From IMG/VR virus record IMGVR_UViG_2711768034_000003: 37,294 nucleotides of DNA, one strand, 5' to 3'. This stretch comes from a virus. Taxonomy: Duplodnaviria; Heunggongvirae; Uroviricota; Caudoviricetes. A program made the translations under genes and the position numbers. Of the stretch, positions 1,149 to 37,294 are shown piece by piece. Every line of letters starts with the position of its first letter. Position 1 is the first letter of the stretch. The notes under the pieces are model-generated. The model did not search any database and was not told the DNA's origin. It saw only the letters and a list, made by a program, of their open reading frames with translations.

Positions 1149-4829
<3,681 letters not shown>

Positions 4830-15857: not shown

Positions 15858-15917
15858 TGCAAAATGTTTTATGTGAAACCGCCTGCGGGCGGTTTTGTCA
15901 TTTATGGAGCGTGAGGA

Positions 15918-18900: not shown

Positions 18901-19397
18901 ATGCGAACGCCGGGACGCTCAACAACGTCACGATTAATGAAAACTGTCGGGTTCTGGGAAAACTGTCTGCGAACCAGATTGAAGGCGATCTCGTTAAAAC
19001 AGTGGGCAAAGCTTTCCCCCGGGACTCCCGTGCACCGGAGCGGTGGCCATCAGGGACCATTACCGTCAGGGTTTATGACGATCAGCCGTTTGACCGGCAG
19101 ATTGTTATTCCCGCGGTGGCGTTTCGTGGCGCTAAACATGAGCGGGAGAATAACGATATTTATTCGTCATGCCGCCTGATAGTGAAGAAAAACGGTGCTG
19201 AAATTTATAACCGTACCGCGCTGGATAATACGCTGGTTTATACAGGTGTTATTGATATGCCTGCCGGTCGCGGTCACATGACGCTGGAGTTTTCGGTATC
19301 AGCGTGGCTGGTAAATGACTGGTATCCCACAGCCAGTATCAGTGATTTGCTGGTTGTGGTGATGAAGAAATCCACAGCAGGTATCACGATTAGCTGA
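15918..19397 (+). CDS. J: tail tip attachment / central tail fibre protein gpJ (host specificity)
   Basis: 1159-aa [78 protein letters not shown]...; lambda J-like along its length, but about 27 aa longer than the 1132 aa I recall for lambda J. Confidence 0.93.
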
Positions 19398-19413
19398 ATT
19401 TTCATAACCCATA

Positions 19414-19443
19414 TGCGGGCGCCATTTCTGGCGCCTTTTTTAT
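19414..19443 (+). terminator. rho-independent terminator downstream of J
   Basis: GCGGGCGCCatttctGGCGCC followed by TTTTTTATT. Confidence 0.7.
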
Positions 19444-19465
19444 TGCAGAAAAGCGAGAGGTAATT

Positions 19466-20065
19466 ATGCGTAAAGTTTGTGCAGCCATTTTGTCCGCAGC
19501 CATCTGTCTGGCCGTATCCGGTGCGCCTGCATGGGCGTCTGAACATCAGTCCACACTGAGCGCGGGGTATCTTCATGCCCGTACGAACGCTCCCGGCAGC
19601 GATAATCTGAACGGGATTAACGTGAAATACCGTTATGAGTTTACGGACACGCTGGGGCTGATTACGTCATTCAGTTATGCCAACGCTGAAGATGAGCAAA
19701 AAACGCATTACAGCGATACCCGCTGGCATGAGGATTCCGTGCGTAATCGCTGGTTCAGCGTGATGGCGGGGCCGTCTGTGCGCGTGAATGAATGGTTCAG
19801 CGCGTATGCGATGGCGGGTGTGGCTTACAGCCGTGTTTCGACTTTCTCCGGGGATTATCTCCGCGTAACTGACAACAAGGGGAAAACGCACGACGTGCTG
19901 ACCGGAAGTGATGACGGTCGCCACAGCAACACGTCTCTGGCGTGGGGGGCTGGCGTGCAGTTTAACCCGACCGAATCCGTGGCCATTGATGTCGCTTATG
20001 AAGGCTCCGGCAGTGGCGACTGGCGCACTGACGGTTTCATCGTGGGTGTCGGTTATAAGTTCTGA
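19466..20065 (+). CDS. lom: Lom outer-membrane protein (Ail/Lom/OmpX family beta-barrel)
   Basis: 199-aa ORF with signal peptide MRKVCAAILSAAICLAVSGAPAWA and C-terminal ...GFIVGVGYKF; SD GAGAGG upstream; same position as lambda lom. Confidence 0.92.
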   Translation: MRKVCAAILSAAICLAVSGAPAWASEHQSTLSAGYLHARTNAPGSDNLNGINVKYRYEFTDTLGLITSFSYANAEDEQKTHYSDTRWHEDSVRNRWFSVMAGPSVRVNEWFSAYAMAGVAYSRVSTFSGDYLRVTDNKGKTHDVLTGSDDGRHSNTSLAWGAGVQFNPTESVAIDVAYEGSGSGDWRTDGFIVGVGYKF

Positions 20066-20092
20066 TTAGCCAGGTAACACAGTGTTATGACA

Positions 20093-20119
20093 GCCCGCCG
20101 GTTCTGGCGGGCTTTTTTG
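20093..20119 (+). terminator. rho-independent terminator downstream of lom
   Basis: GCCCGCCggttctGGCGGGC followed by TTTTTTGT. Confidence 0.7.
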
Positions 20120-20129
20120 TGGGGTGAAT

Positions 20130-23100: not shown

Positions 23101-23882
23101 TGAAAAACCACAGAACCAGTTCACAAGTGCTGATAAGTGGCGATACTGGATCTATTAAGCTACAAAATGGTAATGCAAACAAGGAGTTAGCGCTAACCGA
23201 AGATTCAGTTACCTCAAACGCTGACATTATCCTAAAAAATAGTGATGATGGTTCGCGTCTTCTTATAAGAAACTCAAACACTTCGGCGCAGTCGTGGAGT
23301 ATCAGGGCATGGGGTCAAAGCGGAAGGGAAAGCGTTTTTGAAATTGGTAACACCAAGCAATACATGTTTTACGCACAAGAAACGGCATCGGGTGGCAGAA
23401 ATTTTGACTTTAACGGTGATGTTACATGTAAGACACTATACCAAACTTCTGATCAAAGCCTTAAAGACAACATTAAGGTTATAGGTGACGCTACCGAATC
23501 CATCCGTAAAATGAATGGGTACACATACACGTTTAAGGACGACGGCCTGCCTTATGCTGGCGTTATTGCACAAGAAGTAATGGATGCGCTGCCTGAAGCG
23601 ATAGCGTTTACCACTCTTTACGGTAAAGAGCTACAGGGGCCAACAACTGACGGAAACGTGTTACGCGAAGAGATGAAGTGCCTTAGCGTTGACTATGCGG
23701 CGGTGACTGGTTTACTTGTTCAGGTCGCCCGTGAAACAGATGATCGCGTTACCGCGCTGGAAGAGGAAAACACAACGCTACGTGAAAATCTGGCAACAGC
23801 AGACACCCGGATCAGCACTCTGGAAAATCAGGTAAGCGAACTGGTTGCACTTGTCCGGCAGTTAACAGGAAGCGAACATTGA
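20130..23882 (+). CDS. stf: side tail fibre protein (Stf): lambda-like N-terminal anchor and Ala/Ser-rich repeat region fused to a non-lambda distal module with a C-terminal intramolecular chaperone (peptidase S74-like) domain
   Basis: N-terminus MAVKISGVLKDGAGKPVQNCTIQLKAKRNSTTV... and the A/S-rich repeats (about aa 130-330) match lambda Stf. From about nt 21120 the sequence diverges. C-terminus ...LYQTSDQSLKDNIKVIGDATESIRKMNGYTYTFKDDG... followed by a coiled-coil tail resembles the autocleaving chaperone domain of endosialidase/T5 L-shaped fibre type fibres. Confidence 0.85.
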   Translation: MAVKISGVLKDGAGKPVQNCTIQLKAKRNSTTVVANTVASENPDEAGRYSMDVEYGQYSVILLVEGFPPSHAGTITVYEDSQPGTLNDFLGAMTEDDVRPEALRRFELMVEEVARNASAVAQNTAAAKKSASDAGTSAREAATRATDAAGSARAASTSAGQAASSAQSASSSAGTASTKATEASKSAAAAESSKSAAATSAGAAKTSEMNAAASQKSAATSASTATTKASEAATSARDASASKVAAKSSETSAASSAGSAASSATAAGNSAKAAKTSETNADNSAQAAADSQTASANSATAAKKSETNAKNSEAAAKVSETNAKASENKAKEYLDKVGGLVSPMTQYDWPVVTGNESFYIKIAKLSDPGSGNCHVTLMVTNAGNYGSPYGNIDFIEISARGLPSLLSADNVSRHLSIRRLGSTGLTDNNQMRYGLVKGDGFIEVWAFQRAFINGAKVAVLAQTARTELYIPDGFVKQTAAPSGYVESPVVRIYDQVNKPSKADLGLSNAMLIGAFGLGGSGVGLDNKMTDQELLQELRAKGGCFWRSGKGTGSTATFFSHGSGIFSRCSDTWAALNIDYDSGRVKVYAGNDRRLDDGTFNINELYGTRHKPSKSDVGLGNVTNDAQVKKSGDVMSGDLTINKDTPSLFLRATGETGAAAVRFYTGTNQERGIIYAGPNTDSLGEVRIRAKNAKGVSGGDLIVRHDGVVEVQNLTAAKKVKSVNAELANTSTNTLENTLKISGQQHTPLLLTRTGYSENLSIGFKVDNLDQKYLGINGSGDLAFGKNTDHKQNSRVITQAILDSGVTVGGKTTFSDLATFNAGIAGSIKPEELDQKTIDLNDLTIKGENKGSVKYYQCRTSGGGANITNKPNGVSGNFLLRVESLRNNTDVDYINVQTLVSGDKGRMYVRFVTNGNFTAWSEPVVSGWNQDVTVRSLTSTTPSKLGGGRIDVLGSTSDYDSMNCTVRGVDSSGTNSAWSVGTSVDTGKTLYLKNHRTSSQVLISGDTGSIKLQNGNANKELALTEDSVTSNADIILKNSDDGSRLLIRNSNTSAQSWSIRAWGQSGRESVFEIGNTKQYMFYAQETASGGRNFDFNGDVTCKTLYQTSDQSLKDNIKVIGDATESIRKMNGYTYTFKDDGLPYAGVIAQEVMDALPEAIAFTTLYGKELQGPTTDGNVLREEMKCLSVDYAAVTGLLVQVARETDDRVTALEEENTTLRENLATADTRISTLENQVSELVALVRQLTGSEH

Positions 23883-23919
23883 TATCCTTCAAGCTCTGAA
23901 GGAGGCTGTTCCCGGTACG

Positions 23920-24862
<943 letters not shown>

Positions 24863-24942
24863 CTAAGTCTTTGAATTTACATAGTACAAAAAAGATGCTT
24901 TTCCTCATAATGTGAATTAATTTTATGTTTCGTTTGATGATT

Positions 24943-25008
24943 GGACCGGTCTCGAAAACCGGAGTAGGGGCAACTCTACCGGGGGTTCAAATCCCCCTCT
25001 CTCCGCCA
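24943..25008 (+). other. 3' fragment of a tRNA-Ser(CGA) gene (anticodon stem-loop to CCA); att-like core, not a complete tRNA
   Basis: GGACCGGTCTCGAAAACCGGAGTAGGGGCAACTCTACCGGGGGTTCAAATCCCCCTCTCTCCGCCA matches the 3' two-thirds of enterobacterial tRNA-Ser (serU type); upstream sequence cannot form the acceptor or D arms. Confidence 0.8.
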
Positions 25009-25590
25009 CTTTATCAATGACTTATCTCCCGACTTCCCGCCTTGCTTTTCCTAAACAGAACAATCGTAGAATATTCTTGAAGGGTTAGATCGTCACTGTT
25101 TTCTGTTCGATACTGTGACATTCAGCACTTGATTCGCTATGGATCTGACAGGAAGGTTTCGAGCGAAAATCTGCAGTTATTCAGTCGTTTTCTTATCGGT
25201 CACCATTATTCTTTTAGACATTGATCCTACAAAGCTGCCGCAAAGTTGGTGGTGGGAACTGAAGTTGCGTAGAGAAGGGGTCAATATCCGGAGGCAAACA
25301 TGGGCTGGCAAAAGTGTAGCGGTATTAGGCGCAGCTATTTAGCCTAGTTATGTTTTATGAAAACTTGATATCATATAAGTGTCTTACTTATTGGCTGTAA
25401 ATAAGTCCTTCCTAAGGAATTGTTTCTTGAGTATCATTTGTAACTGTAACGGAATTTATAATCCTTTGCTTTATTGTTACGGTATTTTTTATCACACCCT
25501 ATTTTTAGTGGTTTTTTATACTGAAGTTTGGCAAAGTGAACTTTATATACATATACTTCATCCTGGTTTCAGTTAAATTGGGTGGATGAT

Positions 25591-26337: not shown

Positions 26338-26810
26338 TTGTTCTTGCCCCCTTATTTCCAGACAGGGGGTGTATCTTAAGTTAACGTTACCCGCTGACGT
26401 CGATATTCTCGCGGAGAGCGATAACCCAACGCACTGTGCGGATGGTTTTCATTGTAATGTTCGATCGCCACTGCAAGATTATGCAATGCCGTTCTTACAT
26501 TCGGTTTCGGCATGAACGCGATGTAGTCTTCCTTCATCGTTTTCACGAACCTTTCTGCAATTCCATTACTCTGAGGACTGCTGATTGCCGTTGTGCAGGG
26601 CTCCAGATTCAACTCTCTGGCGAACTGCCGTGTTTCATGCGCTCTATACGCTGAACCGTTATCTGTCAGCCACTGGATGGACTGTTCCGGTACTTTATCG
26701 CCAAAGCGTTTTTCTATCGCTCCTAACATGACATCCTGCACTGTCGCTTTATCGTAACCGCCCGTGCTTGCGGCCCAGTCTATGGCTTCACGATCGCAAC
26801 AGTCCAGGGC
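26338..26810 (-). mobile_element. truncated IS2-group (IS3-family) insertion sequence: terminal end plus 3' part of the transposase gene
   Basis: End sequence TTGCCCCCTTATTTCCAGACA resembles the IS2 terminus. The reverse-strand ORF encodes ...[14 protein letters not shown]...[10 protein letters not shown]...[12 protein letters not shown], the C-terminal DDE integrase core of IS3-family OrfB. Homology stops near 26805-26810. Confidence 0.75.
26376..26804 (-). pseudogene. IS3-family transposase OrfB, C-terminal about 140 codons only (5' truncated)
   Basis: In-frame homology to IS2 InsD extends upstream of the first Met (…[28 protein letters not shown]…) to a stop; no N-terminal half and no OrfA. 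Confidence 0.7.
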
Positions 26811-27088: not shown

Positions 27089-27134
27089 ATTCGTAATGCG
27101 AAGGTCGTAGGTTCGACTCCTATTATCGGCACCA
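27089..27134 (+). other. 3' fragment of a tRNA-Thr(CGU) gene (anticodon loop to CCA); att-like core, not a complete tRNA
   Basis: ATTCGTAATGCGAAGGTCGTAGGTTCGACTCCTATTATCGGCACCA matches the 3' part of enterobacterial thrW-type tRNA-Thr; the 5' acceptor strand GCCGATA is absent upstream. Confidence 0.8.
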
Positions 27135-27411
27135 TCTTTTCTCGTAAAATCATTAAGTTGCTATTGCAGTGTTTTGCGTTGTTCAACACTAATGTACATT
27201 TTTGCGCGTTATGAGTGTGGCAAAATTGTGGCAGACACAGTGAGATTGTTTGTGGATCAATGCAAGAGTATGCTAACAGCATGTTTACCTTGCAGCTCCC
27301 CCTTGTCTTTGAGCAATACACTACTTGATGGCTGCTGGTTACGAACGTTGTCAGAGATTGCTATCACAAGGGGATGGCGCTGAGAATTCATCCTAAATGA
27401 TTGAGGCCAGC

Positions 27412-28461
27412 ATGGAAAAGGAATTACAGCTCAAAGCTGATGAACAAATAAAAGCATACTCCAAAAAAATAGATTTTTACACCTCAGAATATACTGTAGA
27501 AATACTTGCACAAAAAGTAAGAGCTGGCGAATATACAGTCCCTGCATATCAACGTGAGTATACTTGGGATGAACCAAGAAAATGTAAATTTATTGAGTCG
27601 CTAATCATAGGTCTTCCTATTCCATTCGTATTTTTCTGGATGAATGACGATACCGGAAAACTAGAAATTGTTGATGGTTCGCAGCGGCTTAGAACCATTG
27701 AAGAATATTTTAATAATCGTTTAACCCTTGATGGGCTAGAGCGTTTGGATCTTCTTAATGGTACAAGATTTGAAGATTTACCATTAGCACGCCAAAGAAA
27801 AATTTTAAATAAATCTATCCGGGGAATAATACTATCCGAAGATACAGATATGGAAGCAAGGGTTGATTTATTTGAAAGGATAAATACAGGCAGTAAAGTT
27901 GCTAATCCTGCTGAGGTTAGACGCGGTGTTTTACGTGGTCCATTTATGGATTTAATCAATGAATTGGCTGCTAATCAACTGTTTATTAAACTAGCGCCTG
28001 TTTCTGCAAAGCAAAAAAAAGAACGAGAGCCAGAAGAACTAGTAACTAGATTTTTTGCATACTCCGATGGTCTTGACGGATATAGAGATGATGTATCAGC
28101 ATTTATATTTAGATATATAAAGCGAATGAATGAGTTGTTCGAGGAGGATGCAGCTCTGGCTCAACAATATAGAGATCGCTTTTCTCGAATGTTAGCATTC
28201 GTAGAACAAAGTTTCCGTCTCGGATTTAAGAAAACAGTAAAAGGTACAACGACACCACGTGCTCGTTTCGAGTCCATTGCGATAGGCTCGCATTTAGCAT
28301 TAGAAATTAATGGTTCGCTCCAAGTAACTAAGGAACAAACTGACGAAATATTAGAAAGCGATTCCTTTAAAGCTGAAATTCGATCTGATGGCGCTAACGC
28401 AATAAGAAGATTGCAGGGAAGAATTGGTTATATTAGAGATGCTCTTTTAGAGAGGGCTTGA
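27412..28461 (+). CDS. DUF262 / ParB-like nuclease-domain protein (GmrS-like N-terminal domain family)
   Basis: ATG at 27412 with GAGG SD 6 nt upstream (track ORF starts 15 nt earlier). Signature YTVPAYQREYTWDE...LEIVDGSQRLRTIEEYF characteristic of DUF262. Confidence 0.8.
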   Translation: MEKELQLKADEQIKAYSKKIDFYTSEYTVEILAQKVRAGEYTVPAYQREYTWDEPRKCKFIESLIIGLPIPFVFFWMNDDTGKLEIVDGSQRLRTIEEYFNNRLTLDGLERLDLLNGTRFEDLPLARQRKILNKSIRGIILSEDTDMEARVDLFERINTGSKVANPAEVRRGVLRGPFMDLINELAANQLFIKLAPVSAKQKKEREPEELVTRFFAYSDGLDGYRDDVSAFIFRYIKRMNELFEEDAALAQQYRDRFSRMLAFVEQSFRLGFKKTVKGTTTPRARFESIAIGSHLALEINGSLQVTKEQTDEILESDSFKAEIRSDGANAIRRLQGRIGYIRDALLERA

Positions 28462-28463
28462 TC

Positions 28464-29189
28464 ATGCAACTAGTAAAAGATGTTTTTGATGAAAGAGTTG
28501 CTGATATCGAGAGCTATTTTGAATTGGTGAATAATGTTGAGCTTGCAATTGGCTCTGGAGGAGCGATATTCAGTGTTAATGGGACGCAATACCAAATAAA
28601 TCCTGATCAGCAGAAGATAATGTATTCTGGAATATATCTACATTTGTATAATTTGGTCGAATCGACGATCTCTATGTTAATAGATGCTGTCGAACGGCAT
28701 GCGGCGCAAGGAATTAATGGACAACTGGTTCTACTAACTGAAAACATGAAGAAGCTGTATGTTAAATCTGTAGCAGCTCCTTTTGAATCAATAAATAATG
28801 ATTTACGGTTAGAGAAGGCGTTAGAACTATTTGACCAAGTATTAAATATAAAGCCTCTTGAACTTAGGATCCCGCCGGGAGGCGGAGGTAATTGGGACTT
28901 AAAAGAAATAGAGAGGATAAGTAAGAGTATAGGTGTTGATGTCACTCTTCCCAGAGCGCTTAGGGCAAAGGTAAATGCTCCATTTAGAGACGATAAAGGA
29001 CCTATTCGGCTAGTTAAAGAAATAAGAAACAAATTAGCTCATGGTTCTCTTTCATTTACACAATGTGGTACGAACCATGTAGCCAGTGATTTTAGGCGGT
29101 TGATTGATATAGTCAAAGAATACTTAGCCCATATAATCCGATCTTATGAAAACTTCATAACCGCACAAGGTTATAAGATTGCACAATGA
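28464..29189 (+). CDS. HEPN-like domain protein (R-x4-H motif), translationally coupled to the DUF262 gene
   Basis: ATG at 28464, 2 nt after the DUF262 stop, with AGAGGG SD inside the upstream gene; C-terminal EIRNKLAHGSLSF fits the HEPN Rx4-6H motif; 241 aa. Confidence 0.65.
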   Translation: MQLVKDVFDERVADIESYFELVNNVELAIGSGGAIFSVNGTQYQINPDQQKIMYSGIYLHLYNLVESTISMLIDAVERHAAQGINGQLVLLTENMKKLYVKSVAAPFESINNDLRLEKALELFDQVLNIKPLELRIPPGGGGNWDLKEIERISKSIGVDVTLPRALRAKVNAPFRDDKGPIRLVKEIRNKLAHGSLSFTQCGTNHVASDFRRLIDIVKEYLAHIIRSYENFITAQGYKIAQ

Positions 29190-29192
29190 TAT

Positions 29193-30257
29193 TTATTTGG
29201 CCAAGGACGTAATTATACTTTGGCCAATAATCTCTCCTAACTTGACCGGAACTGCATTTCCGATCATTTTAGCTAATGTAGCTACGCTTAGCGGGTTTTC
29301 GTCATCATGAAACTTATAAGCTAAAGGAAATGATTGTAGTAATGCAGCCTCCCTTAGACTGATCGCTCGATCTTGCACAGGATGCCCAAATCTACCATTC
29401 CCATAACCATTACATTGAGTAGTAATTGTTGGTGATGGCTCATCCCATGTCATCCGTCCATAAACACTTGGATAAGTTTTTCCTGTCATTTTCTTATGGC
29501 AGCTAGCCCTTAGTTCTTCCGGCCAATCCAGCCAAGAACCGCCAGGTTTTGAATATTGAATCCGCTTTAAGTTTATAGGGCTTAGAATTGACGAGCGATG
29601 TATAGGATCAACCTTATCCTTTTCGCCTGCTGTTATGCGAGGAAGATGCTCAATCGCATCTCTTACAGTGACATATTTATCTGCAGTATGCGTAGCTGGT
29701 ATTATTGATATCTCGCTAACTTTTGATGCGATTAATACTAATCTTTTTCGCGTTTGAGGGATTCCATAATCAGGACAAAATACGATTTTATAATCAAATG
29801 AATAACCGTTATGCCGAAGAGTTGCTAAAAACGCATTAAATACTCCCTGTTCTGCCAAGCCAGGAACATTTTCCATTGTAACGAAATCAGGAGTGATCTC
29901 ATTGATCAGGCGCCCAAAGCTTTCCAGAAGGTTCCATCGTTTGTCAGGAGAAGTAGTTCGTTTTATATTTGCTCTGGAATATGTTGAGAAGGGTTGGCAA
30001 GGTGCACATCCAGCAAGGAGGGTGTAATCGCCGCCAGCCAGATACTTTGCTACATCATTTCCTGAAAGATGAGTTACATCTTGTTTTATAAATCTGGCGT
30101 TGTTATTGATTTCATACGCATAACGACAAGATTCCTCGATATCATATCCGGCGGTCACGGATATGCCTGAACGCTGGAGACCATGCGTTAGCCCCCCGGC
30201 TCCACAAAAAAGATCCACTGCCTTAATTTTTGTATGATTTTTCAACGTAAACCTCAC
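29193..30257 (-). CDS. DNA (cytosine-5)-methyltransferase
   Basis: Motif I DLFCGAGG, motif IV GCAPCQPFS (PCQ), ENV, QTRKR, and GNAVPV all present in canonical order. Start is GTG at 30257 or, more likely, TTG at 30245 preceded by a GAGG SD. Convergent with the HEPN gene, 3 nt apart. Confidence 0.9.
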   Translation of the reverse strand: MRFTLKNHTKIKAVDLFCGAGGLTHGLQRSGISVTAGYDIEESCRYAYEINNNARFIKQDVTHLSGNDVAKYLAGGDYTLLAGCAPCQPFSTYSRANIKRTTSPDKRWNLLESFGRLINEITPDFVTMENVPGLAEQGVFNAFLATLRHNGYSFDYKIVFCPDYGIPQTRKRLVLIASKVSEISIIPATHTADKYVTVRDAIEHLPRITAGEKDKVDPIHRSSILSPINLKRIQYSKPGGSWLDWPEELRASCHKKMTGKTYPSVYGRMTWDEPSPTITTQCNGYGNGRFGHPVQDRAISLREAALLQSFPLAYKFHDDENPLSVATLAKMIGNAVPVKLGEIIGQSIITSLAK

Positions 30258-30600
30258 TACTTAGACGTGGCGAATTATAGCAAAATTTACAATGAACATC
30301 GAGGGATTTTATTTCCTTTGAAATCATGTATATAGTTATTTTTTAAGTTAATACTCAACAGTTAGATGCTGAGATACTCTTTCCTGCCAGACAATCAAAC
30401 ATAGTTCCACCTAGTTTTCCTGCAAGGACTTTGAATCTGTTCACCGCCTGCAAAATTAGGTCGAAAGAATGTTACAACAACAACATACACAGGCAATCAA
30501 ACACGCTTAGTCGTCCATTAGTATTTCCGGCTGATTAGATGTAAGATCTTAAGGTCTAATGTAGGCTGTTCCATTCAGGCCAGAGTGGCAAAATAAAAAG

Positions 30601-30630
30601 GCCCGATCTTACCAGTCGGGCTTCTTTATA
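30601..30630 (-). terminator. rho-independent terminator (reads best on the minus strand, downstream of the HigA-like gene)
   Basis: GCCCGAtcttaccagtCGGGC; on the minus strand the hairpin is followed by CTTTTTTATTTT. Confidence 0.6.
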
Positions 30631-30821
30631 TCGGCTTTTAATGTCGCCTGTACCACTGCTAAAATGACTTACCTAGTCATGGCAGGTTCCCATCATCAAG
30701 GATCGGATTTTTTAATCCTCAGTCGTCCGAGTATATTATCGCTTTAATAAGTCGTTAGAAATGTATGAGTATTATTCAAAGCAAATTATGTATTAGGACT
30801 AAGTAATCTAATTGAATAATC

Positions 30822-31079
30822 TTACTTTTGTTTATTAAACCATGCCTCATGTAGCTCTTGCAGTTTCACCCAAAAAGATGCATCTGTATTGAAAATTATC
30901 GAGAGTTGAATAGCTTCTTCAAGAGTTATATTTCGCTCATTTTTAATTATTTCCCAAATTTTTTCATATGATGTATCCATCAGTTCAGCAAGTCTTGCGG
31001 GAGGCATATCCAATGGTTTCAAGAATTCTTCGTATAAAATCTCTCCGACAGTTGAAGGTGCAGCATTTATTGTCCTCAT
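30822..31079 (-). CDS. HigA-family antitoxin-like XRE HTH protein (orphan; no adjacent toxin ORF)
   Basis: 85-aa ORF with ...TVGEILYEEFLKPLDMPPARLAELMDTSYEKIWEIIKNERNITLEEAIQLSIIFNTDASFWVKLQ... matching the HigA/VapI addiction-module antidote pattern; strong SD AAGGGGGGG upstream of the ATG at 31079. Confidence 0.7.
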   Translation of the reverse strand: MRTINAAPSTVGEILYEEFLKPLDMPPARLAELMDTSYEKIWEIIKNERNITLEEAIQLSIIFNTDASFWVKLQELHEAWFNKQK

Positions 31080-31122
31080 ACCCCCCCTTTTTTTTAAACG
31101 TCATCGGATTCCTTACAGTAAT

Positions 31123-31138
31123 TTGTTTAGCTAAACAA
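31123..31138. repeat. 16-bp perfect palindrome TTGTTTAGCTAAACAA (candidate operator)
   Basis: Self-complementary; related palindromes GGTTAGCTAACC (31234-31245) and GTTTAGCTAAAC (31312-31323) share the TTAGCTAA core. Confidence 0.6.
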
Positions 31139-31411
31139 ATCAGAGAGTAAGGTTAGTTGAAGTGTTTTTCTTACTCAAATTCGATATATCCGTTGTCAGA
31201 AATGAATCATTTACAAACAGTGTTTCTTATAAAGGTTAGCTAACCAAATTTATAAGTCATCTACAATCCCCTGTTATTTACATTTTGTTTCATTTTATTT
31301 ATTGCTATTTAGTTTAGCTAAACAATCTATTTTATCATGTATAATCTGTGTATTTATCCACAGATTCTGTTAATAATATTGTGTATAACTTGTTTGCTTA
31401 TTTTTTATTAT

Positions 31412-31477
31412 ATGACATATGAGGTGCGCCTTTATGACATATGAGGTACGCTTTCATGACATTTGAGGTACGGATAT
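31412..31477 (+). repeat. three tandem 22-bp direct repeats (iteron-like): ATGACATATGAGGTGCGCCTTT / ATGACATATGAGGTACGCTTTC / ATGACATTTGAGGTACGGATAT
   Basis: Read directly from the sequence; contiguous, no spacers, in an AT-rich non-coding stretch. Confidence 0.8.
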
Positions 31478-31722
31478 AATTTAAAATTGTCATATTAAAC
31501 AAGTGAATATATCGCTTTTCCACACCTCTCTAACCTGATCTTTAACCTTTTATATAACCAAAAAGATTAAAGGAATTATTAAAACCTTAGTGTCATTCAG
31601 AAATCGGTCAATAAAACCAATTTCATATGGAGTAAGAATCCGATGAATAAAAACCCTGTTGACATTATTATTTTTGCCAGTAAGTTTTAATTATTCTCAA
31701 TTCATAACGTTGGTTAGCAAAC

Positions 31723-31750
31723 TTTAGCGGCTAAAATTTTAGCCGCTAAA
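31723..31750. promoter_or_regulatory. 28-bp perfect palindrome TTTAGCGGCTAAAATTTTAGCCGCTAAA (candidate operator) just upstream of the HTH/AT-hook gene
   Basis: Perfect dyad symmetry; ends 22 nt before the ATG at 31773; shares the TTAGC/GCTAA half-site with the upstream palindromes. Confidence 0.65.
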
Positions 31751-31772
31751 ATCCTCAAATTTCTACTGAGAG

Positions 31773-32066
31773 ATGGGTTCTTCGATGAAATCAGTTATGC
31801 CAGAACTTATAACCGTTGAAGAGTTGGCTTTTGCATTAAAGAAAACTGTAAAAAGTATCCGCAGTGATGCAACGCGAAATCCAAAATGTCTTCCACCAAG
31901 ATGCCGTCTTCCCGGTAATAAACGTCTTCTCTGGCGTAGAGAAGATGTTAAGGACTGGATAGATAAATCTGTTGAGTCAAAGACAGAAAATGACGATATA
32001 GCGAAAGAGATAAATAGGTTTCAAAGGAAACGTGGCAGGCCGCCAAAACCCAAGCCGCGAGAATAA
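31773..32066 (+). CDS. small DNA-binding protein, excisionase/AlpA-like HTH with C-terminal AT-hook (RGRPPKPKP)
   Basis: 97-aa ORF; ...ELITVEELAFALKKTVKSIRSDATRN... and ...RLLWRREDVKDWI... resemble MerR/excisionase-type HTH; basic tail FQRKRGRPPKPKPRE is an AT-hook-like motif. Confidence 0.55.
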   Translation: MGSSMKSVMPELITVEELAFALKKTVKSIRSDATRNPKCLPPRCRLPGNKRLLWRREDVKDWIDKSVESKTENDDIAKEINRFQRKRGRPPKPKPRE

Positions 32067-32169
32067 AAATATTTCTTAGGGTCATTCAAATAATTTCCCT
32101 TCCAATAAACACATATGCTGCACATTTTTACACTACTAATCCTGCACAAATGCTTTAGGAAAACACACT

Positions 32170-32336
32170 GAGTACACAGGAATACACAATACGTACACAG
32201 ATTCACAACGGCAAATGTAGGGCAGGATATGTAAAGTAGGCCCACCGTAAACGGTGCTTCTACTTTACCTTCCCTTATTCGCAGCTGAGCTGCTCAACGG
32301 AGTCCTGCTCTGCGAGGCTGATCGGCTACCGCCTGT
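32170..32336 (+). promoter_or_regulatory. candidate origin of transfer (oriT) / MobC operator region: TACACAG repeats and nested inverted repeats
   Basis: gagTACACAGgaaTACACAatacgTACACAG (about 32172-32210); nested IR GTAAAGTAGgcCCACCGtaaaCGGTGcttCTACTTTAC (about 32228-32266); then GCAGCtgaGCTGC and ...GAGTCCTGCTCT... immediately upstream of the MobC-like gene. Confidence 0.4.
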
Positions 32337-32348
32337 ATGGAGAATGAT

Positions 32349-32702
32349 ATGACCGTTTCTCAGACTAGAAAAAATAGTACACCAATTAAAGTTTATTGTT
32401 TGCCAGATGAAAAAGCGCAAATCCAGGAAAATGCTGAAGCATCTGGCTTAAGTGTAGCGAGTTTCATTCGTAAAGTAGCAATGGGTTATCAGGTTGAATC
32501 TATGGTAGATATTGAACAGGTTGTAGAGCTTAGCCGAGTAAATGCTGATCTTGGTCGACTTGGTGGGTTACTTAAACTGTGGTTAGCTGACGATCCACGC
32601 ACAGTTGATTTTTCACCCTCATTGATAAAAACGTTGCTTGCTAAAATAGAATCAACCAGACAAGAACTAAGAAATATTATGGATAGAATCTTGGATAAAT
32701 AA
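32349..32702 (+). CDS. MobC-like ribbon-helix-helix relaxosome accessory protein
   Basis: ATG at 32349 with GGAG SD. N-terminal RHH-like IKVYCLPDEKAQIQENAEASGLSVASFIRKVAMGY and central VELSRVNADLGRLGGLLKLWL resembling the MobC family motif. Confidence 0.55.
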   Translation: MTVSQTRKNSTPIKVYCLPDEKAQIQENAEASGLSVASFIRKVAMGYQVESMVDIEQVVELSRVNADLGRLGGLLKLWLADDPRTVDFSPSLIKTLLAKIESTRQELRNIMDRILDK

Positions 32703-32783
32703 ATTTATGGTTTCCTAAATATCTGTATTTGTTAAAAGTACGAGTTTTCAATATTAATAATCAATTAAATTTGAGGTGGGCAA

Positions 32784-33578
32784 ATGAAGTTAATGCTCCG
32801 AGTATTTTCATCACTGAGAGGGATTTTAGCAGCTAAAAAATCATTAGCAGCTTCCTTCCTGGCGTCCATCATGGCATTACCGGCGACAGCCGGTATCCCT
32901 GTAATTGATGGTACTAATGTGGTGCAGACCACAATCAGCGCAGTCAACAACGTTCAGGCTGTGGCAAAACAGATCCAGCAGTACCAGACGCAGCTGCAGC
33001 AGTATGAAAACATGCTCAAAAATACAGTCGCACCTGCAGCCTATATCTGGGATCAGGCCAATTCGACCATCAACAAATTGTTGCAGGCGCAGGACACCCT
33101 TAATTACTACAAAAACCAGGCCGGGAGTCTTGATTCATATCTGAAACGTTATCAGGACGTGAATTACTACCGCTCATCACCATGCTTTAACAGTAATGTT
33201 GAATGTACTGCGGATGAAATTAGCGCACTGCGCAAAGCTGAACAGAACAGCTCTGAGGCACGTAAAAAGGCCAATGACGCTGTATTTAAGGCTCTTGACG
33301 AACAGCAGGAAACACTGCAAAGCGATGCTGACAACCTTGCAGATTTGCAAACGCAGGCAACCGGCGCACAAGGGCAAATGGAAGCTATTCAGGCCGCTAA
33401 CCAGCTTGCCAGTGCTCAAACGAACCAGTTGCTGCAAATCCGCTCGCTTCTGGTATCCCAGCAAAACGCTGCAGCAACACTGGCACAGGCTGAGGCTGAT
33501 AAAGAAGCCCAACAAATAGTCGCTGATGAAAAAGCGTTAGCTGGCGAGAACACACTAAGCCCGAAGCGAATTTGGTGA
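32784..33578 (+). CDS. trbJ: P-type conjugative transfer protein TrbJ (VirB5-like)
   Basis: 264-aa ORF with signal peptide; ...PATAGIPVIDGTNVVQTTISAVNNVQAVAKQIQQYQTQLQQYENMLKN... matches the TrbJ N-terminal signature; coiled-coil Q-rich body; GAGGTGG SD upstream. Confidence 0.75.
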   Translation: MKLMLRVFSSLRGILAAKKSLAASFLASIMALPATAGIPVIDGTNVVQTTISAVNNVQAVAKQIQQYQTQLQQYENMLKNTVAPAAYIWDQANSTINKLLQAQDTLNYYKNQAGSLDSYLKRYQDVNYYRSSPCFNSNVECTADEISALRKAEQNSSEARKKANDAVFKALDEQQETLQSDADNLADLQTQATGAQGQMEAIQAANQLASAQTNQLLQIRSLLVSQQNAAATLAQAEADKEAQQIVADEKALAGENTLSPKRIW

Positions 33579-33589
33579 GGGAGAGCTGA

Positions 33590-33763
33590 ATGAAAGATAA
33601 ACTTTTGGTCATTTTTATTCTAATAATTTCATTAATTCTATGCTCTTGCGATAAAAAAGATGAATATTGTTTATCGACGCCAGAGAATAAATTGAACGAA
33701 CATAACTACGATAAATGTGCCCTGCGTGGCAATAACAATCCTAGCCCTAAGCGAGAATGGTAA
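33590..33763 (+). CDS. small lipoprotein, TrbK-like entry-exclusion candidate (not in the supplied ORF track)
   Basis: ATG at 33590 with GAGGGAG SD; 57 aa MKDKLLVIFILIISLILCSCDKKDEY... with lipobox-like LILC; sits between trbJ and trbL as trbK does in IncP Tra2. Confidence 0.5.
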   Translation: MKDKLLVIFILIISLILCSCDKKDEYCLSTPENKLNEHNYDKCALRGNNNPSPKREW

Positions 33764-35160
33764 TTATGAGAATAGTAAGCAAACTCACTTTTTTAGGAAT
33801 GTTTTTTTTGTTTTCTGTAAATGCTTATGCTGGTCAATTAGATAGTAGCGGATTACTTGATACGTTATTAGATAAGTTTCAGCAAGTAGCCAGCACATGG
33901 TCATTAGTAATTGGTGATTATGCAAATTGGCTCTTCTGGGGGCTGGTATTAATAAGTATGGTTTGGACATTTGGTATGTTGGCGATGCAAGGGGAAGGTT
34001 TAATCAGTGCACTTGCAGAAATAGTTCGTTTTTTTGCCGTGATTGGTTTTTTTTATTATCTTTTAATCAACGGCCCAGCCATATCACAATCTATAATTAA
34101 CTCAATGAGACAACTTGCAGCAAATGCTTTAGGAACAAGTACTGGTATTTCACCCTCCAGCATAGTTGATATGGCTTTTGTGATATTAACAAAGGTCAGT
34201 TCAGCAGCATCAATTTGGTCTCCAATGATTTCGACCATTATGATAACCGTCGCGATAATAGTATTAGTAGTAATGGCGCTTATCGCGATAAATATGCTAA
34301 TAATGTTAGTTTCTGCATGGGTGTTGTGTTATGCAGGAGTTATTTTGCTTGGGTTTGGTGGCTCGAAATGGACTTCTGATATAGCAATAAATTACTTACG
34401 CACAGTATTATCGATTGGTATTCAGTTATTTACGATGACATTAATCATTGGGATTGGGCAATCATTTATAGATCAGTATTTTTCTATTATTAAAAATGAT
34501 ATTCCTGATCTTAATAGTCTTATTGTTTTACTTCTGGCGTCAATTATTCTTTTAGTATTGACGAATAAATTACCGTTGTTGTTATCAGGCGTTGTTGGAG
34601 GAGCGTCCTTACAAGGGATCGGTGGTTTTGGAGCAGGTATGATTACTGGCGCTGCTACTACTGCAATCAGTGGCGCTGGGACAATGGCAATGAGTGCTAC
34701 AGCTCAAGTCAGTGGTGGTGCTTCCGCTCTAAAAGCAGCATTTGAATCTGCACAAGCGGCGATGGCCGAAGAATCTGGTTCTGGTGATAAAGGTGGTTCA
34801 GGTGGAGGATTTGGCGGAGGGGAAGATACCGGTTCCGTAGATACTTCTGGAGGACAACCATCAGGCGGTTCCGGTGGTTCTTCTGCAGGGAGTAATACAG
34901 GTAGCGTTAGCGGAGGAAGCCAGGGGTTTGCTTCATCATTCTCACGAGCTGGCCGCATGGCTTCTCACATGGCGAGCGGGCTGTCTAACGGAGCTTCGGA
35001 GTATCAGATGATGAAGGGAAGTGCTAATTCTATCCGAACACAACAGACTGTTGATGGGGAAATAGCGAATCAAATACGTAAACACACAGCCGATCGTCAG
35101 AGTAACCACGAACAGGATGAGTTTGAGGGTGATAGTTTTACTGGCAGTAAAAAATCTTGA
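33757..35160 (+). CDS. trbL: P-type conjugative transfer protein TrbL (VirB6-like) with Gly/Ser-rich C-terminal tail
   Basis: Multi-pass hydrophobic protein with signal-like N-terminus (MRIVSKLTFLGMFFLFSVNAYAG from the alternative ATG at 33766) and C-terminal GSGGGFGGGEDTGS...SGGSGGSS low-complexity tail typical of TrbL/VirB6. Confidence 0.75.
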   Translation: MVIMRIVSKLTFLGMFFLFSVNAYAGQLDSSGLLDTLLDKFQQVASTWSLVIGDYANWLFWGLVLISMVWTFGMLAMQGEGLISALAEIVRFFAVIGFFYYLLINGPAISQSIINSMRQLAANALGTSTGISPSSIVDMAFVILTKVSSAASIWSPMISTIMITVAIIVLVVMALIAINMLIMLVSAWVLCYAGVILLGFGGSKWTSDIAINYLRTVLSIGIQLFTMTLIIGIGQSFIDQYFSIIKNDIPDLNSLIVLLLASIILLVLTNKLPLLLSGVVGGASLQGIGGFGAGMITGAATTAISGAGTMAMSATAQVSGGASALKAAFESAQAAMAEESGSGDKGGSGGGFGGGEDTGSVDTSGGQPSGGSGGSSAGSNTGSVSGGSQGFASSFSRAGRMASHMASGLSNGASEYQMMKGSANSIRTQQTVDGEIANQIRKHTADRQSNHEQDEFEGDSFTGSKKS

Positions 35161-35167
35161 TTTAGGC

Positions 35168-35199
35168 GCGTCAGTTAGCGCGGTAACGTTAACTGACGC
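35168..35199. repeat. 10-bp perfect inverted repeat GCGTCAGTTA ... TAACTGACGC (12-nt spacer)
   Basis: Read directly; lies between the trbL stop and the next gene's RBS; no T-tract follows. Confidence 0.5.
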
Positions 35200-35229
35200 T
35201 TCCACTAAACACCTGTAAGGAGGTGGATA

Positions 35230-35442
35230 ATGGTTGATTATAATAGCTTAGTTTTGGAAGGGCTAAAAATCCTTTTTTCCGACAAAAATAATGAATTTGT
35301 AAAAAAACTCTATGATCCCTTGATAAATATTCTGTGCATTGAAGACTATTATTTTGCTACCGGGATTTATGATTCAGAAGATGCGTCCAAACAAATTGAA
35401 AAGCTAAAGAAAGCAATAAATGATTATAGGTTTAATTATTAG
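35230..35442 (+). CDS. hypothetical small protein (70 aa)
   Basis: Strong SD TAAGGAGGTG 6 nt upstream of the ATG; no recognisable family. Confidence 0.5.
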   Translation: MVDYNSLVLEGLKILFSDKNNEFVKKLYDPLINILCIEDYYFATGIYDSEDASKQIEKLKKAINDYRFNY

Positions 35443-35446
35443 TAAT

Positions 35447-35486
35447 TAGAAAGAGGCTAACAAAGGTTAGCCTTTCTTTTATTTTG
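35447..35486. terminator. bidirectional rho-independent terminator between convergent genes
   Basis: AGGCTAACaaagGTTAGCCT, an 8-bp perfect stem flanked by an A-run on one side and TTTCTTTTATTTT on the other. Confidence 0.65.
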
Positions 35487-35667
35487 ATTTTCCAGTGTAA
35501 TAGTTAAATACCTCAAGTCTAGCTTCTTCATAAGTCAATTCTCCATTAATGACCTTGCTCTTTATTAGTTCATAGTATGGTAACCCTCGCGGATCTTTGT
35601 TTGATAAATATAAACTCGCCTCCGCTTTCTTGAAAGCTTTAGTACGCTTATCATATATTGGATTCAT
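35479..35667 (-). CDS. hypothetical small protein (62 aa), co-transcribed downstream of the 439-aa gene
   Basis: Starts 4 nt after the stop of the upstream reverse-strand gene; basic, helical; no recognisable family (a VbhA/FicA-type inhibitory motif was looked for and not found). Confidence 0.45.
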   Translation of the reverse strand: MNPIYDKRTKAFKKAEASLYLSNKDPRGLPYYELIKSKVINGELTYEEARLEVFNYYTGKSK

Positions 35668-35671
35668 TTAT

Positions 35672-36991
35672 TCAAAACTCATTATCGTGTTTTTTTTCAT
35701 TAACTGTACTACTGATTTCTTGAGGTTCGTAATCATCTTCTTCATGATAGTCTTTCACAGAACTCCCAATCTCTTCAATTTCTGCTTCTCCTATAGCAAA
35801 CTTGCCTAGTATGATTTTACTTTTATTTGTAAAGGAGACATCAATTTCTTCACCGCAATAAGGCTTGTCTTCATGAGTGGTTCCTGAAAGGATGCACTCG
35901 AACTTGACTTTAAACGATTCATCAGTGAGTTCGCTGTCTATAATTTGCAGGTTTTCTACATAGTCAAAGTAAGCGTTAGTTTCTGCTATGCTACCACTTA
36001 CTTCATCACAATGAATCAAGTCGTACATACCATTTTCCTCAAGATTGTCACGTATTTTTTCACTGACCTCATCTTTTGTAAGGATTTTTATATTGAGATC
36101 CTCTTCGAATATATTCTGTAAATGTTCAAATAAAGTGTAGCTGTCAATATCTTCATCAATATTTTCGTCTTCGATTATTGATTTAATATCCGCTATTAAA
36201 CTTTCTGAGTAAATTATATAATCAATCGCCTCTAAAGAATCTGTGTTGAAATTTTCATCTTCGAGTAATTTTGTAAAAGATGTGTATCCAAAAACACTAG
36301 CGATTACTGCGCCTAAACCCGAAAGCGAGATTTTAATTGAATCAGCAGTAAGTATTAAGTCAAGTTTATTAATTAAATAGAAGGCTGAGGAAAGTTGTGA
36401 TATTTTCTTTTTTTCCTCGATTTGATATTTCAGTTTGTCATAGCTCATTTTTTCTCTCTCTCTGCTCATAGCCTCTCGTGAGAGTTTGATTTCTGTTGCT
36501 TGTTTTTCTTTGATAGAAGTCTCCAGTTCAATTTTCATTTTCTCAGATTTTTCGTACATCGCTTTAATAATTACTGAGGATGCTTTAGAGCGTTCCTTTA
36601 TATCTTCAGTTAGTGTTTTTTGTTGTTCGATTCTTTCATTGCTAAATGCTATTTCTTCGATGATTTCTTGAGCTGCAATTTCACTCTCATGCTCAGCCTT
36701 ATATTTTGAGTTAATAAGCCTTGCTCTTTCTTTCTCTTTTTTTACTTTTTGATTAATGCTAGAACAATATCTTATGTGTTCTATCTCACCTTGAATTAAC
36801 CCAGTAAGATAATTTACTAAGGGTAATAAAAATAAATATGCTAGCATCAGAAATGCTATCAATAAATATTCTGAAGTGGTAATCCCAGTTAAGAATGATT
36901 TAAATTGAGTGACTCTGGAGTCGATTGTTCCAGTTCCCCAAAATAGCAATGTGAATTTATCCCAGTATAAAATTACAAATATAGCACTCAA
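35672..36991 (-). CDS. hypothetical membrane-anchored coiled-coil protein with acidic C-terminal domain; 5' end abuts an IS1 terminus (possibly truncated)
   Basis: 439-aa ORF; hydrophobic N-terminal segments, long K/E-rich coiled coil, D/E-rich C-terminus. The only in-frame start before the IS1 inverted repeat is a TTG at 36989-36991; the next ATG is codon 49 (36845-36847) without an SD. Confidence 0.5.
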   Translation of the reverse strand: MSAIFVILYWDKFTLLFWGTGTIDSRVTQFKSFLTGITTSEYLLIAFLMLAYLFLLPLVNYLTGLIQGEIEHIRYCSSINQKVKKEKERARLINSKYKAEHESEIAAQEIIEEIAFSNERIEQQKTLTEDIKERSKASSVIIKAMYEKSEKMKIELETSIKEKQATEIKLSREAMSREREKMSYDKLKYQIEEKKKISQLSSAFYLINKLDLILTADSIKISLSGLGAVIASVFGYTSFTKLLEDENFNTDSLEAIDYIIYSESLIADIKSIIEDENIDEDIDSYTLFEHLQNIFEEDLNIKILTKDEVSEKIRDNLEENGMYDLIHCDEVSGSIAETNAYFDYVENLQIIDSELTDESFKVKFECILSGTTHEDKPYCGEEIDVSFTNKSKIILGKFAIGEAEIEEIGSSVKDYHEEDDYEPQEISSTVNEKKHDNEF

Positions 36992-36997
36992 TGTGCC

Positions 36998-37294
36998 GGT
37001 AATGACTCCAACTTATTGATAGTGTTTTATGTTCAGATAATGCCCGATGACTTTGTCATGCAGCTCCACCGATTTTGAGAACGACAGCGACTTCCGTCCC
37101 AGCCGTGCCAGGTGCTGCCTCAGATTCAGGTTATGCCGCTCAATTCGCTGCGTATATCGCTTGCTGATTACGTGCAGCTTTCCCTTCAGGCGGGATTCAT
37201 ACAGCGGCCAGCCATCCGTCATCCATATCACCACGTCAAAGGGTGACAGCAGGCTCATAAGACGCCCCAGCGTCGCCATAGTGCGCTCACCGAA
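36998..37294 (-). mobile_element. IS1 (partial; continues beyond the right window edge), with terminal inverted repeat at 36998-37020
   Basis: GGTAATGACTCCAACTTATTGAT is the IS1 terminal inverted repeat; downstream sequence encodes the InsB C-terminus. Confidence 0.9.
37013..37294 (-). CDS. insB: IS1 transposase InsB, C-terminal part (5' end beyond window)
   Basis: ...[93 protein letters not shown] is the InsB C-terminus. Confidence 0.9.

Follow-up and report, generated by a model that had tools for sequence, protein, structure and literature searches.

A transfer module with oriT, iterons and operator sites of low-GC IncP-1-like plasmids in a probable integrative mobilizable element at thrW of Escherichia coli

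We have analysed a DNA stretch of 37,294 nucleotides filed in IMG/VR as virus record IMGVR_UViG_2711768034_000003 (hereafter the window, numbered from its first letter), in which a genomic island follows the late genes of a lambda-like prophage. The interval 32067-35160, with a candidate origin of transfer (oriT) and genes of the traJ, trbJ, trbK and trbL type, probably constitutes the transfer part of an integrative mobilizable element, about 11 kb long, that is inserted in the 3' end of the tRNA-Thr gene thrW and exploits low-GC IncP-1-like conjugative plasmids of Enterobacteriaceae. This thrW element is the counterpart, in Escherichia coli and Shigella, of the Salmonella island StmGI_0323, and it is a relative of GIsul2 and of the elements called PIMEs. 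An earlier note on the same interval had taken it for a decayed or modular fragment of a P-type conjugative or mobilizable element; the limits it chose leave out the most informative part, a regulatory region resembling a plasmid replication origin (oriV) at 31.1-31.75 kb. All functions attributed to the island below are deduced from sequence.

The core of the element has a conserved order, namely a higA-like gene, a non-coding region, orf97, oriT, traJ, trbJ, trbK, trbL and orf70, which is common to island copies with 77-99% identity; the cargo on both flanks differs. Its transfer part has the following features (dN and dS, non-synonymous and synonymous divergence; RHH, ribbon-helix-helix).

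32162-32208, plus strand: five phased repeats of TACACA type, between orf97 and the nick site, with 10-11-nt phasing
32220-32230, minus strand: nic region, reading ATATCCTG|CCC, with the predicted nick (bar) between 32223 and 32222
32220-32319, plus strand: traJ leader, overlapping the inverted repeat and nic; match to Rfam RF01760 (traJ-II) with 93.1 bits (gathering score 40)
32231-32268, no strand: inverted repeat of oriT, whose arms of 17 nt are complementary at 14 positions; presumed TraJ binding site
32349-32702 (alternative start 32337), plus strand: traJ, RHH relaxosome accessory protein (NCBIfam PRK13877, Pfam NikA-like)
32784-33578, plus strand: trbJ (VirB5-like), NCBIfam PRK13879
33590-33763, plus strand: TrbK-like inner-membrane lipoprotein of 57 amino acids, candidate entry-exclusion protein by position and architecture
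33766-35160 (alternative start 33757), plus strand: trbL (VirB6-like), TIGR02783 and Pfam TrbL
35230-35442, plus strand: orf70, small gene that closes the core and is conserved in all copies (dN/dS 0.2-0.28)

The nick-region core of IncP (RP4-type) oriT, ATCCTG|C, is present on the minus strand of the window, in a context that becomes ATGTCCTG|CCC in other island copies and in low-GC plasmids, and CTATCCTG|CCC in RP4. The RP4 oriT sequence was confirmed by BLAST against IncP-1 alpha plasmids (185 nt aligned, 100% identity), and the nick position predicted for the window is transferred from RP4 biochemistry. On the plus strand the inverted repeat reads GTAAAGTAG gcc CACCG taaa CGGTG ctt CTACTTTAC, while the minus strand reads GTAAAGTAGAAGCACCG-TTTA-CGGTGGGCCTACTTTAC followed by the nic region; the corresponding part of RP4 is ...GGTGGGCCTACTTCAC CTATCCTG|CCC, with a nick-proximal arm nearly the same as that of the island. 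The repeat stops 8 nt 5' of the predicted nick, and traJ lies on the repeat side, on the opposite (plus) strand. This inverted repeat is identical to that of plasmid pHNJXZA32-2 (NZ_CP193885.1), and over the 57-nt oriT core two other island copies (L004 and L007) are identical to the same plasmid, the window differing from it by a single base. The island oriT and traJ leader also align with a second low-GC plasmid, pJJ1886_4 (NC_022650.1), which has a homologous leader and the same arrangement of nic, repeat and traJ; the conserved structure described by the traJ-II family may reflect this DNA site rather than, or besides, an RNA.

The TACACAG/TACACAA repeats and the nested inverted repeat that the earlier note had recognized are where it had placed them, the former as part of a five-unit phased run, and its proposal of a candidate oriT to be served in trans is credible; the Rfam match lends independent support. 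The repeat unit, [AT][AT]CACA[ACG], occurs five times in 60 nt, with a maximum of three in 200 shuffles of the window, and the repeats are kept even in copies that are 77% identical overall. They align at 31 of 41 positions with a segment lying directly upstream of traK in both plasmids, inverted relative to nic, and they may be binding sites for TraK of the helper plasmid. The segment 32139-32215, which includes the repeats and a preceding ATCCTGC.CAAAT, is homologous to positions 4083-4124 of our comparison sequence L002. The plus-strand ATCCTGC at 32139-32145 was considered as a nick site and rejected, for it has no adjacent repeat and is part of this block resembling the region upstream of plasmid traK.

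The strongest indirect sign that this oriT is in use comes from co-variation between protein and site. The N-terminus of TraJ exists in two types, NSTPIKVYC and HGKHIRVPV, which track two types of oriT repeat over islands and plasmids: islands of the window type and pHNJXZA32-2 combine the N-terminus TRKNSTPIKVYC with the repeat arm GGTGGGCCTACTTTAC, and island L003 and pJJ1886_4 combine TRKHGKHIRVPV with GGTTAGCTAACTT(C/T)AC. This pattern suggests that separate island lineages follow separate plasmid lineages.

The genes of the module fit the same picture to different degrees. What had been called a MobC-like RHH gene retains its role as a relaxosome accessory gene and changes family: its product scores 162.6 bits with PRK13877 versus a curated equivalog cutoff of 134 and matches the NikA-like family PF21983 with an E value of 1.7e-23, and a match to MobC (PF05713) is absent, only the NikA-like family and a weak RHH_1 match appearing at E <= 0.01. 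Its identity to the TraJ proteins of the plasmids is 72% and 70%, and its DNA-reading N-terminus is the same as in pHNJXZA32-2. The TrbJ-like and TrbL/VirB6-like genes had been named correctly, since both pass their equivalog cutoffs (378 versus 286 bits for TrbJ, 267 versus 129 bits for TrbL). TrbJ shares 87-90% identity with the plasmid proteins, rising to 93-100% in its core; TrbL is 54-60% identical to plasmid TrbL and is a mosaic, in which the membrane part has 33-76% identity and the Gly-rich part 90-93%.

The 57-residue open reading frame (ORF) between trbJ and trbL has the length and position of plasmid trbK, and its product has a lipobox, LCS|C, with Asp at +2 (LCS|CD), three Cys residues and a C-terminal SPxxxW that it shares with plasmid TrbK. 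It is present in every related copy, with dN/dS of 0.11-0.31. The lipoprotein signal and the location given for it in the earlier note hold, while similarity to TrbK does not emerge: there is no NCBIfam or Pfam match, tblastn against the two plasmids gave nothing, and the identity to plasmid TrbK is 18-31% in a forced global alignment. Since TrbK and TrbL have diverged while TrbJ is nearly identical to that of the plasmids, TrbL becomes a candidate for the donor-side partner still sought for TrbK of IncP plasmids (PMC8923210); we take the joint divergence as a hint of TrbL involvement with TrbK, not a demonstration. The C-termini of TrbJ (33561-33578) and of the TrbK-like protein (33746-33763) both read SPKR(I/E)W, their plasmid counterparts being SPAQSW and SPEKKW, so that an SPxxxW tail is common to two neighbouring gene products. 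No family match was found for orf70 in profile searches of Pfam and NCBIfam type.

Upstream of the transfer genes, a non-coding stretch of about 700 bp between the higA-like gene and orf97 contains the sites on which our broader proposal is founded (OA, KorA operator; OB, KorB operator).

30822-31079, minus strand: HigA-like XRE-type helix-turn-helix (HTH) gene, first of the core; RefSeq HigA family, weak HTH_3 match, KorA operator upstream
31125-31136, no strand: KorA operator OA-1, TGTTTAGCTAAACA, perfect, upstream of the higA-like gene; 11 of 12 positions invariant in six copies
31312-31323, no strand: KorA operator OA-2, perfect, 12 of 12 positions invariant in six copies; flanks the oriV-like region as in plasmid oriV
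31354-31362, plus strand: DnaA box, TTATCCACA, the sole perfect copy in the window
31411-31476, plus strand: three TrfA-type iterons at exact 22-bp spacing, with cores TGACATATGAGGTG, TGACATATGAGGTA and TGACATTTGAGGTA
31548-31610, plus strand: AT-rich block, TCTAACC..TTTAACC..ATATAACC, candidate DNA-unwinding element; GC 22-38%
31723-31750, no strand: two adjacent perfect KorB operators or parS-type sites, TTTAGCGGCTAAA and TTTAGCCGCTAAA, 35-62 nt upstream of orf97
31785-32066, plus strand: orf97 (93-97 amino acids), excisionase/AlpA-like winged HTH protein with a C-terminal AT-hook, KRGRPPK

The operators and iterons are far more numerous than expected by chance in the window. Using shuffles of the window, and the core operator sequences of structural work on KorB and KorA (PMC11790492), we found two perfect KorA operators (GTTTAGCTAAAC) versus 0.07 expected, three iteron matches versus 0.04, and two perfect KorB operators (TTTAGCSGCTAAA) versus 0.05. 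Besides this upstream region, the window holds none of the motifs except a KorB site with one mismatch inside trbJ (32825-32837), at a position that is occupied by a perfect site in the plasmids. All six island copies compared retain the iteron triplet, and the KorB operators persist in all island copies; the motif positions are invariant in 86% of cases versus 53% for the remaining non-coding DNA (six copies, Fisher p = 4e-11).

The order of OA, DnaA box, iterons and AT-rich block is the same in the island and in both plasmids. The position of the DnaA box relative to OA and iterons corresponds to that in pJJ1886_4, in which the matching location beside the DnaA box holds an OA-like site, and the AT-rich block, in which 43 of 63 positions are invariant in six copies, aligns with an AT-rich region beside the plasmid iterons. 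The plasmids have nine (pJJ1886_4) and eight (pHNJXZA32-2) iterons beside trfA, with 22-bp spacing inside the main clusters; pJJ1886_4 has in addition 14 perfect KorB sites, and five perfect and two near-perfect KorA sites. The iteron cores GAGGTA and GAGGGG occur in plasmids and islands alike. A pairing of iteron type with oriT type for each plasmid group was considered and rejected, the islands being mosaic in this respect. Two further elements of the region, TTCGATATATCCGTTGT (31180-31196) and the palindrome GGTTAGCTAACC (31233-31244), are invariant in six island copies; they were rejected as plasmid operators because they do not recur in the plasmids, and might be recognised by regulators of the island itself.

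The proteins that would act on the plasmid-type sites are not encoded by the island. Searches by tblastn with plasmid TraI, TraG, TraK, TrfA, KorA, KorB and IncC found nothing in it, there is no TrbA or RepA gene, and no ORF matches a Rep family. The statement of the earlier note that relaxase, coupling protein and VirB4/VirB11 are not encoded in the window is correct, as is its description of a P-type module without the other parts of a type IV secretion system (T4SS). In the literature that we searched we found no report of iterons and KorA/KorB sites on an island. If these sites work, the island would be the first integrative mobilizable element known to us to copy the replication origin of a helper instead of encoding a replicase.

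The boundaries of the element were established by comparison with intact copies.

27089-27134, plus strand: attL, copy of the 3' part of thrW; left island end, at the junction with the upstream prophage
36998-37294, minus strand: IS1 copy interrupting the island, with an InsB-like ORF at 37013-37279

Positions 27089-36997 of the window correspond, with 99.9% identity, to 15390-25298 of the best E. coli match (strain PS_131_S11, NZ_CP145099, hereafter L001), and the homology ends where IS1 begins. In L001 an element of 11,163 bp lies between thrW and a tyrosine integrase, flanked by direct repeats of 50 nt (15387-15436 and 26550-26599) that constitute the 3' end of thrW; ARAGORN detects this tRNA gene in L001 and not in the window. 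The segment that in intact copies holds the integrase and attR would be situated past the IS1 at 36998, an insertion whose junction does not occur in a set of 5,426 complete E. coli genomes. RefSeq places a 112-nt 'tRNA-Ser' at the attR of each island copy (26487-26598 in L001), in a stretch that holds the duplicated 3' end of thrW; ARAGORN finds no tRNA at these positions of L001, and the annotation is probably an artefact.

The core regulatory region is present in approximately 124 of the 5,426 complete E. coli genomes (about 2%). Intact copies (L001, L003, L004 and L008) carry their own tyrosine integrase. Two Enterobacter species hold the island at the same site, with proteins identical to those of E. 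coli copies for the integrase (100%) and nearly so for TrbL (98%), which argues for recent transfer between genera; the species breadth, taken from a contig scan for orf97 by exact peptide words that gave two other species representatives, is a lower bound. The closest orf97 protein in a large database is from Shigella flexneri. Purifying selection is evident on orf97, traJ, trbJ, trbK, trbL and orf70, with dN/dS of 0.03-0.31 and dS reaching values >1. Complete genomes carrying the island contain no T4SS contiguous with it; a contiguous one would, for the earlier note, have been the sign of an intact system. Where that note does not stand is in the words remnant and decayed: the recurrence of the same reduced gene set between att repeats, the presence of an integrase and the purifying selection on the module genes indicate the design of an integrative mobilizable element rather than decay.

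The protein of orf97 is treated here as the Xis/AlpA-like factor of the island. Among its homologues, 17 of 37 match Pfam HTH_17 and 6 of 37 AT_hook, and its dN/dS is 0.03-0.12. The AlphaFold2 model (pLDDT 73.7) resembles BldC, the excisionase RdfS, Xis of Pukovnik and the excisionase of GIsul2 (8c3t), with weak E values of 0.03-0.14; a profile search of PDB sequences gave no match. The gene was not found in the plasmids and is specific to the island. A distant homologue heads a cluster resembling filamentous phages (Phage_CRI, Zot, secretin) in metagenome contigs (L011, 8001-16161), in keeping with orf97-like proteins serving mobile elements in general, as small regulators or excisionases.

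These features can be assembled into the following scenario. KorA and KorB of a helper plasmid would bind the island operators and tie the expression of the regulator and of orf97-traJ-trbJKL to the presence of the helper; the integrase and orf97 would excise the island, and the resulting circle would be replicated from the iterons by helper TrfA and host DnaA, and possibly partitioned via its KorB sites. TraJ would mark oriT for the helper relaxase TraI, with nicking at ATATCCTG|CCC, and the DNA would exit via the helper T4SS, in which TrbJ and TrbL of the island possibly replace the plasmid subunits. The divergent TrbK would then give the island its own exclusion specificity. In its full extent this amounts to a satellite made of nearly nothing else than cis sites, which lacks replicase and relaxase genes as well as partition and regulator genes of its own kind; a single plasmid of IncP-1-like type would replicate, partition, regulate and transfer it in trans. 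We advance this stronger proposal tentatively, as a serious possibility with somewhat less than an even chance of being right.

Several observations weigh against the scenario. The far end of the window copy is damaged by IS1 and its integrase lies outside the visible DNA. A minimal oriV of RK2 has five iterons, while the island has three, and no trfA, and these three could act just as a sink for TrfA; moreover, the DnaA box is absent from two of six island copies. KorA and KorB are repressors, which makes their part in switching the island on hard to see, and a promoter scan around the operators returned fewer consensus promoters than shuffles and no convincing sigma-70 promoter. The assignment of trbK is that of a candidate, by position and architecture. 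Searching the 5,426 E. coli genomes with a chimeric query, we found the island together with a TrfA plasmid in none of 214 genomes, versus about 1.8 expected, an uninformative difference. Finally, an E. coli PIME at guaA with traJ and no traI was excised, and not mobilised, by the IncP-1 plasmids pB10 or pKJK5 (bioRxiv 10.64898/2026.01.12.698999), a failure that may reflect a helper mismatch.

Part of this evidence could be accommodated by assuming that the island is mobilizable via oriT and reintegrates without replicating, its iterons and KorA/KorB operators being plasmid sequence inherited without a present role. The low number of iterons and the loss of the DnaA box in two copies would agree with such an assumption, as would the reliance of guaA PIMEs on their own RepA and different iterons, and the existence of a Burkholderia relative in which an orf97-like gene, its own TrfA gene and traJ occur together, so that the iterons may be leftovers of an ancestor bearing trfA. 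Against it, the motifs are much more invariant than the surrounding non-coding DNA (86% versus 53%) in copies whose neighbouring genes have dS >1; the 22-bp spacing, the order of sites and the AT-rich block are retained as well, and the iteron variants (GGTA, GGGG) stay inside the plasmid range. We therefore regard inheritance without role as unlikely. Another possibility is that the cluster mainly serves host or island as a barrier to plasmids, in which TrbK would exclude IncP-like plasmids and the iterons and KorB sites would titrate TrfA and KorB and so destabilise a plasmid that has entered. Proteins of TrbK type act in recipients (PMC8923210), PIME1 reduced the copy number of pB10 (bioRxiv 10.64898/2026.01.12.698999), SGI1 expels its helper via mimics of parS (PMC10954446), defence genes are cargo of the island, and no genome has both island and plasmid. 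The absence of co-occurrence is not significant, however, the TrbK of the island is quite different from those of the plasmids, and a barrier needs neither an exact copy of oriT nor matching TraJ, TrbJ and TrbL and an excisionase, which are all under purifying selection. Interference is compatible with hijacking, as in SGI1, and we consider it quite improbable that a barrier is the main function.

The view of the earlier note, in which a P-type conjugative element or integrated plasmid, formerly complete, has decayed to a fragment, can point to the presence of 4 of about 25 IncP transfer genes, to the IS1 that cuts the window copy and to one relative with an IS5 inside trbJ. It does not explain why the same reduced set, together with an integrase of its own, recurs between att repeats in many genomes of three genera, why each module gene is under purifying selection while near-identical copies exist across genera, or why the same design is found in GIsul2 and in PIMEs, one of which is experimentally mobile; in our judgement this view is very improbable. 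The probable reading remains that of a mobilizable element exploiting low-GC IncP-1-like plasmids.

The remaining genes of the island, at both flanks of the transfer module, are listed below.

27397-28461, plus strand: NsnA-like/GmrSD_N protein (PADLOC NsnA, E 1e-58; Pfam GmrSD_N)
28458-29189, plus strand: MAE_28990-type HEPN protein (Pfam HEPN_MAE_28990)
29193-30257, minus strand: C5 cytosine methyltransferase (Pfam DNA_methylase)
35479-35667, minus strand: VbhA-like antitoxin (orf62), with 51% identity to an antitoxin of the VbhA family in pJJ1886_4
35672-36991, minus strand: coiled-coil membrane protein, with its 5' end removed by IS1; the full gene, of 465 amino acids, is in L001

The stretch 27397-30257 is variable cargo, and other copies have different defence or resistance genes there; 35479-36991 is a second variable region. 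One copy, of strain MB56 (L005, 1-7190), adjoins tet(B), tetR and tetC (Tn10) and a copy of ISVsa5; the tetracycline-resistance region of this strain may travel with or beside the island. The HigA-like protein is 51% identical to HigA of pJJ1886_4, and no recognisable toxin gene lies beside either the HigA-like or the VbhA-like gene in the window copy; the two proteins could neutralise addiction modules of the helper. No family match was obtained for the coiled-coil membrane protein. On the other side of attL, the window contains lambda-like late genes over 1-24 kb, and its part 1-27088 represents the late half of such a prophage (terminase, portal, capsid, tape measure, J and tail fibre), ending with a LEM-3-like GIY-YIG gene followed by an AraC regulator. 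Prophage and island lie in tandem at thrW, and the same tandem was reported for StmGI_0323 in one Salmonella strain.

Relaxase-less integrative mobilizable elements with TrbJ, TrbK and TrbL are already known in the form of GIsul2 and PIMEs, and the present island has already been listed in Salmonella. What is new here is the finding of helper-type iterons and perfect KorA and KorB sites on an island without replicase. Its oriT is essentially identical to that of specific low-GC IncP-1-like plasmids, which occur frequently in E. coli from clinical and animal sources. If the sites work, the mimicry of oriT extends to mimicry of an origin of replication and of a regulon, and there would be a testable answer to two open points of the PIME preprint, namely which plasmid mobilises the E. 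coli elements without traI and how a helper is sensed; a likely helper and a possible KorA/KorB sensing route would then be named for the relaxase-less elements of PIME type, for which mobilisation by plasmids of the IncP-1 beta and epsilon groups was unsuccessful. The islands at thrW also carry defence and resistance genes between genera.

Among the closest known systems is StmGI_0323, a genomic island of Salmonella Typhimurium described in 2017 in Scientific Reports and found once in tandem with a prophage (PMC5575072). We matched it through the gene order and product sizes of the published ORF table: it has the same thrW site, followed by HigA, a product of 97 amino acids, TraJ (121), TrbJ (264), a product of 57, TrbL, a product of 70, a membrane protein and a recombinase, and differs in its cargo genes. 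The paper gives the ORF list and the qualification 'of plasmid origin', with no oriT, iterons, operators, helper or mechanism (PMC5575072). GIsul2 has TrbJ, TrbK and TrbL without relaxase, coupling protein or other T4SS parts, and for it IncP helpers and a reshaping of the mating pore as in SGI1 were proposed (Harmer, Hamidian and Hall 2017; PMC5704250). By its published description it is similar to the thrW element in being integrative and relaxase-less, and its excisionase has the fold of orf97 (weak match); unlike the thrW element, it is inserted at guaA, encodes RepA and RepC, and carries sul2 and ars genes.

PIMEs such as PIME1EcRHB23-C07 share with the thrW element the succession oriT-traJ-trbJ-trbK-trbL, an IncP-like oriT with 17-nt repeats, defence cargo and, in the E. 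coli representative, the absence of a relaxase; their excision is induced by IncP-1 plasmids (bioRxiv 10.64898/2026.01.12.698999). Of the genes by which PIMEs were recognized, the thrW element has int (from the intact copies), an alpA counterpart in orf97, trbJ and trbL. It has no replicase gene of its own (repA), and it integrates at the 3' end of thrW instead of guaA, the site of PIMEs and GIsul2; lacking a replicase, it would have been missed by the search of the preprint. Two guaA elements in our comparison (L009 and L010) have TraJ 87-91%, TrbL 87% and TrbK 70% identical to those of the window, with a different integrase and their own RepA with four 21-nt iterons, whereas TrfA-type iterons, a pair of KorA operators and a full-length orf97 distinguish the thrW element. 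These guaA elements have four (L009, 9781-14725) and two (L010, 14006-14829) perfect KorB operators, and after a KorB operator upstream of oriT they retain a truncated 5' remnant of orf97; the wiring via KorB may be general in this group of elements. The preprint does not mention korA, korB or trfA (bioRxiv 10.64898/2026.01.12.698999). In a Burkholderia contig (L013, 5863-8052), beside dnaA-dnaN-gyrB, an orf97 homologue is followed by an own gene of the TrfA family and by a NikA-like traJ, possibly the order that an ancestor of the thrW element had before the loss of trfA.

With the low-GC plasmids pHNJXZA32-2 and pJJ1886_4, for which RP4/RK2 serves as reference, the island has in common the oriT repeat, nic, traJ leader and TrbJ, as well as the sequence and spacing of the iterons, the order of DnaA box and AT-rich block, OA and OB. 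The plasmids encode the proteins acting on these sites and a full trb/tra set, and the island encodes none of these proteins, adding instead an integrase, an Xis-like gene and strongly diverged TrbK and TrbL. A functional parallel is SGI1, which uses IncC helpers, is relaxase-less, has three T4SS subunits of its own, heeds the regulators of its helper and replicates in a helper-dependent manner (PMC5704250), and which possesses two mimics of the helper parS through which it expels the helper (PMC10954446). For every kind of helper piracy proposed for the thrW element SGI1 provides a precedent, its two parS mimics included, while the sequences are unrelated, the T4SS is of another type, and SGI1 has its own replicase and responds to an activator, AcaCD, rather than to repressors.

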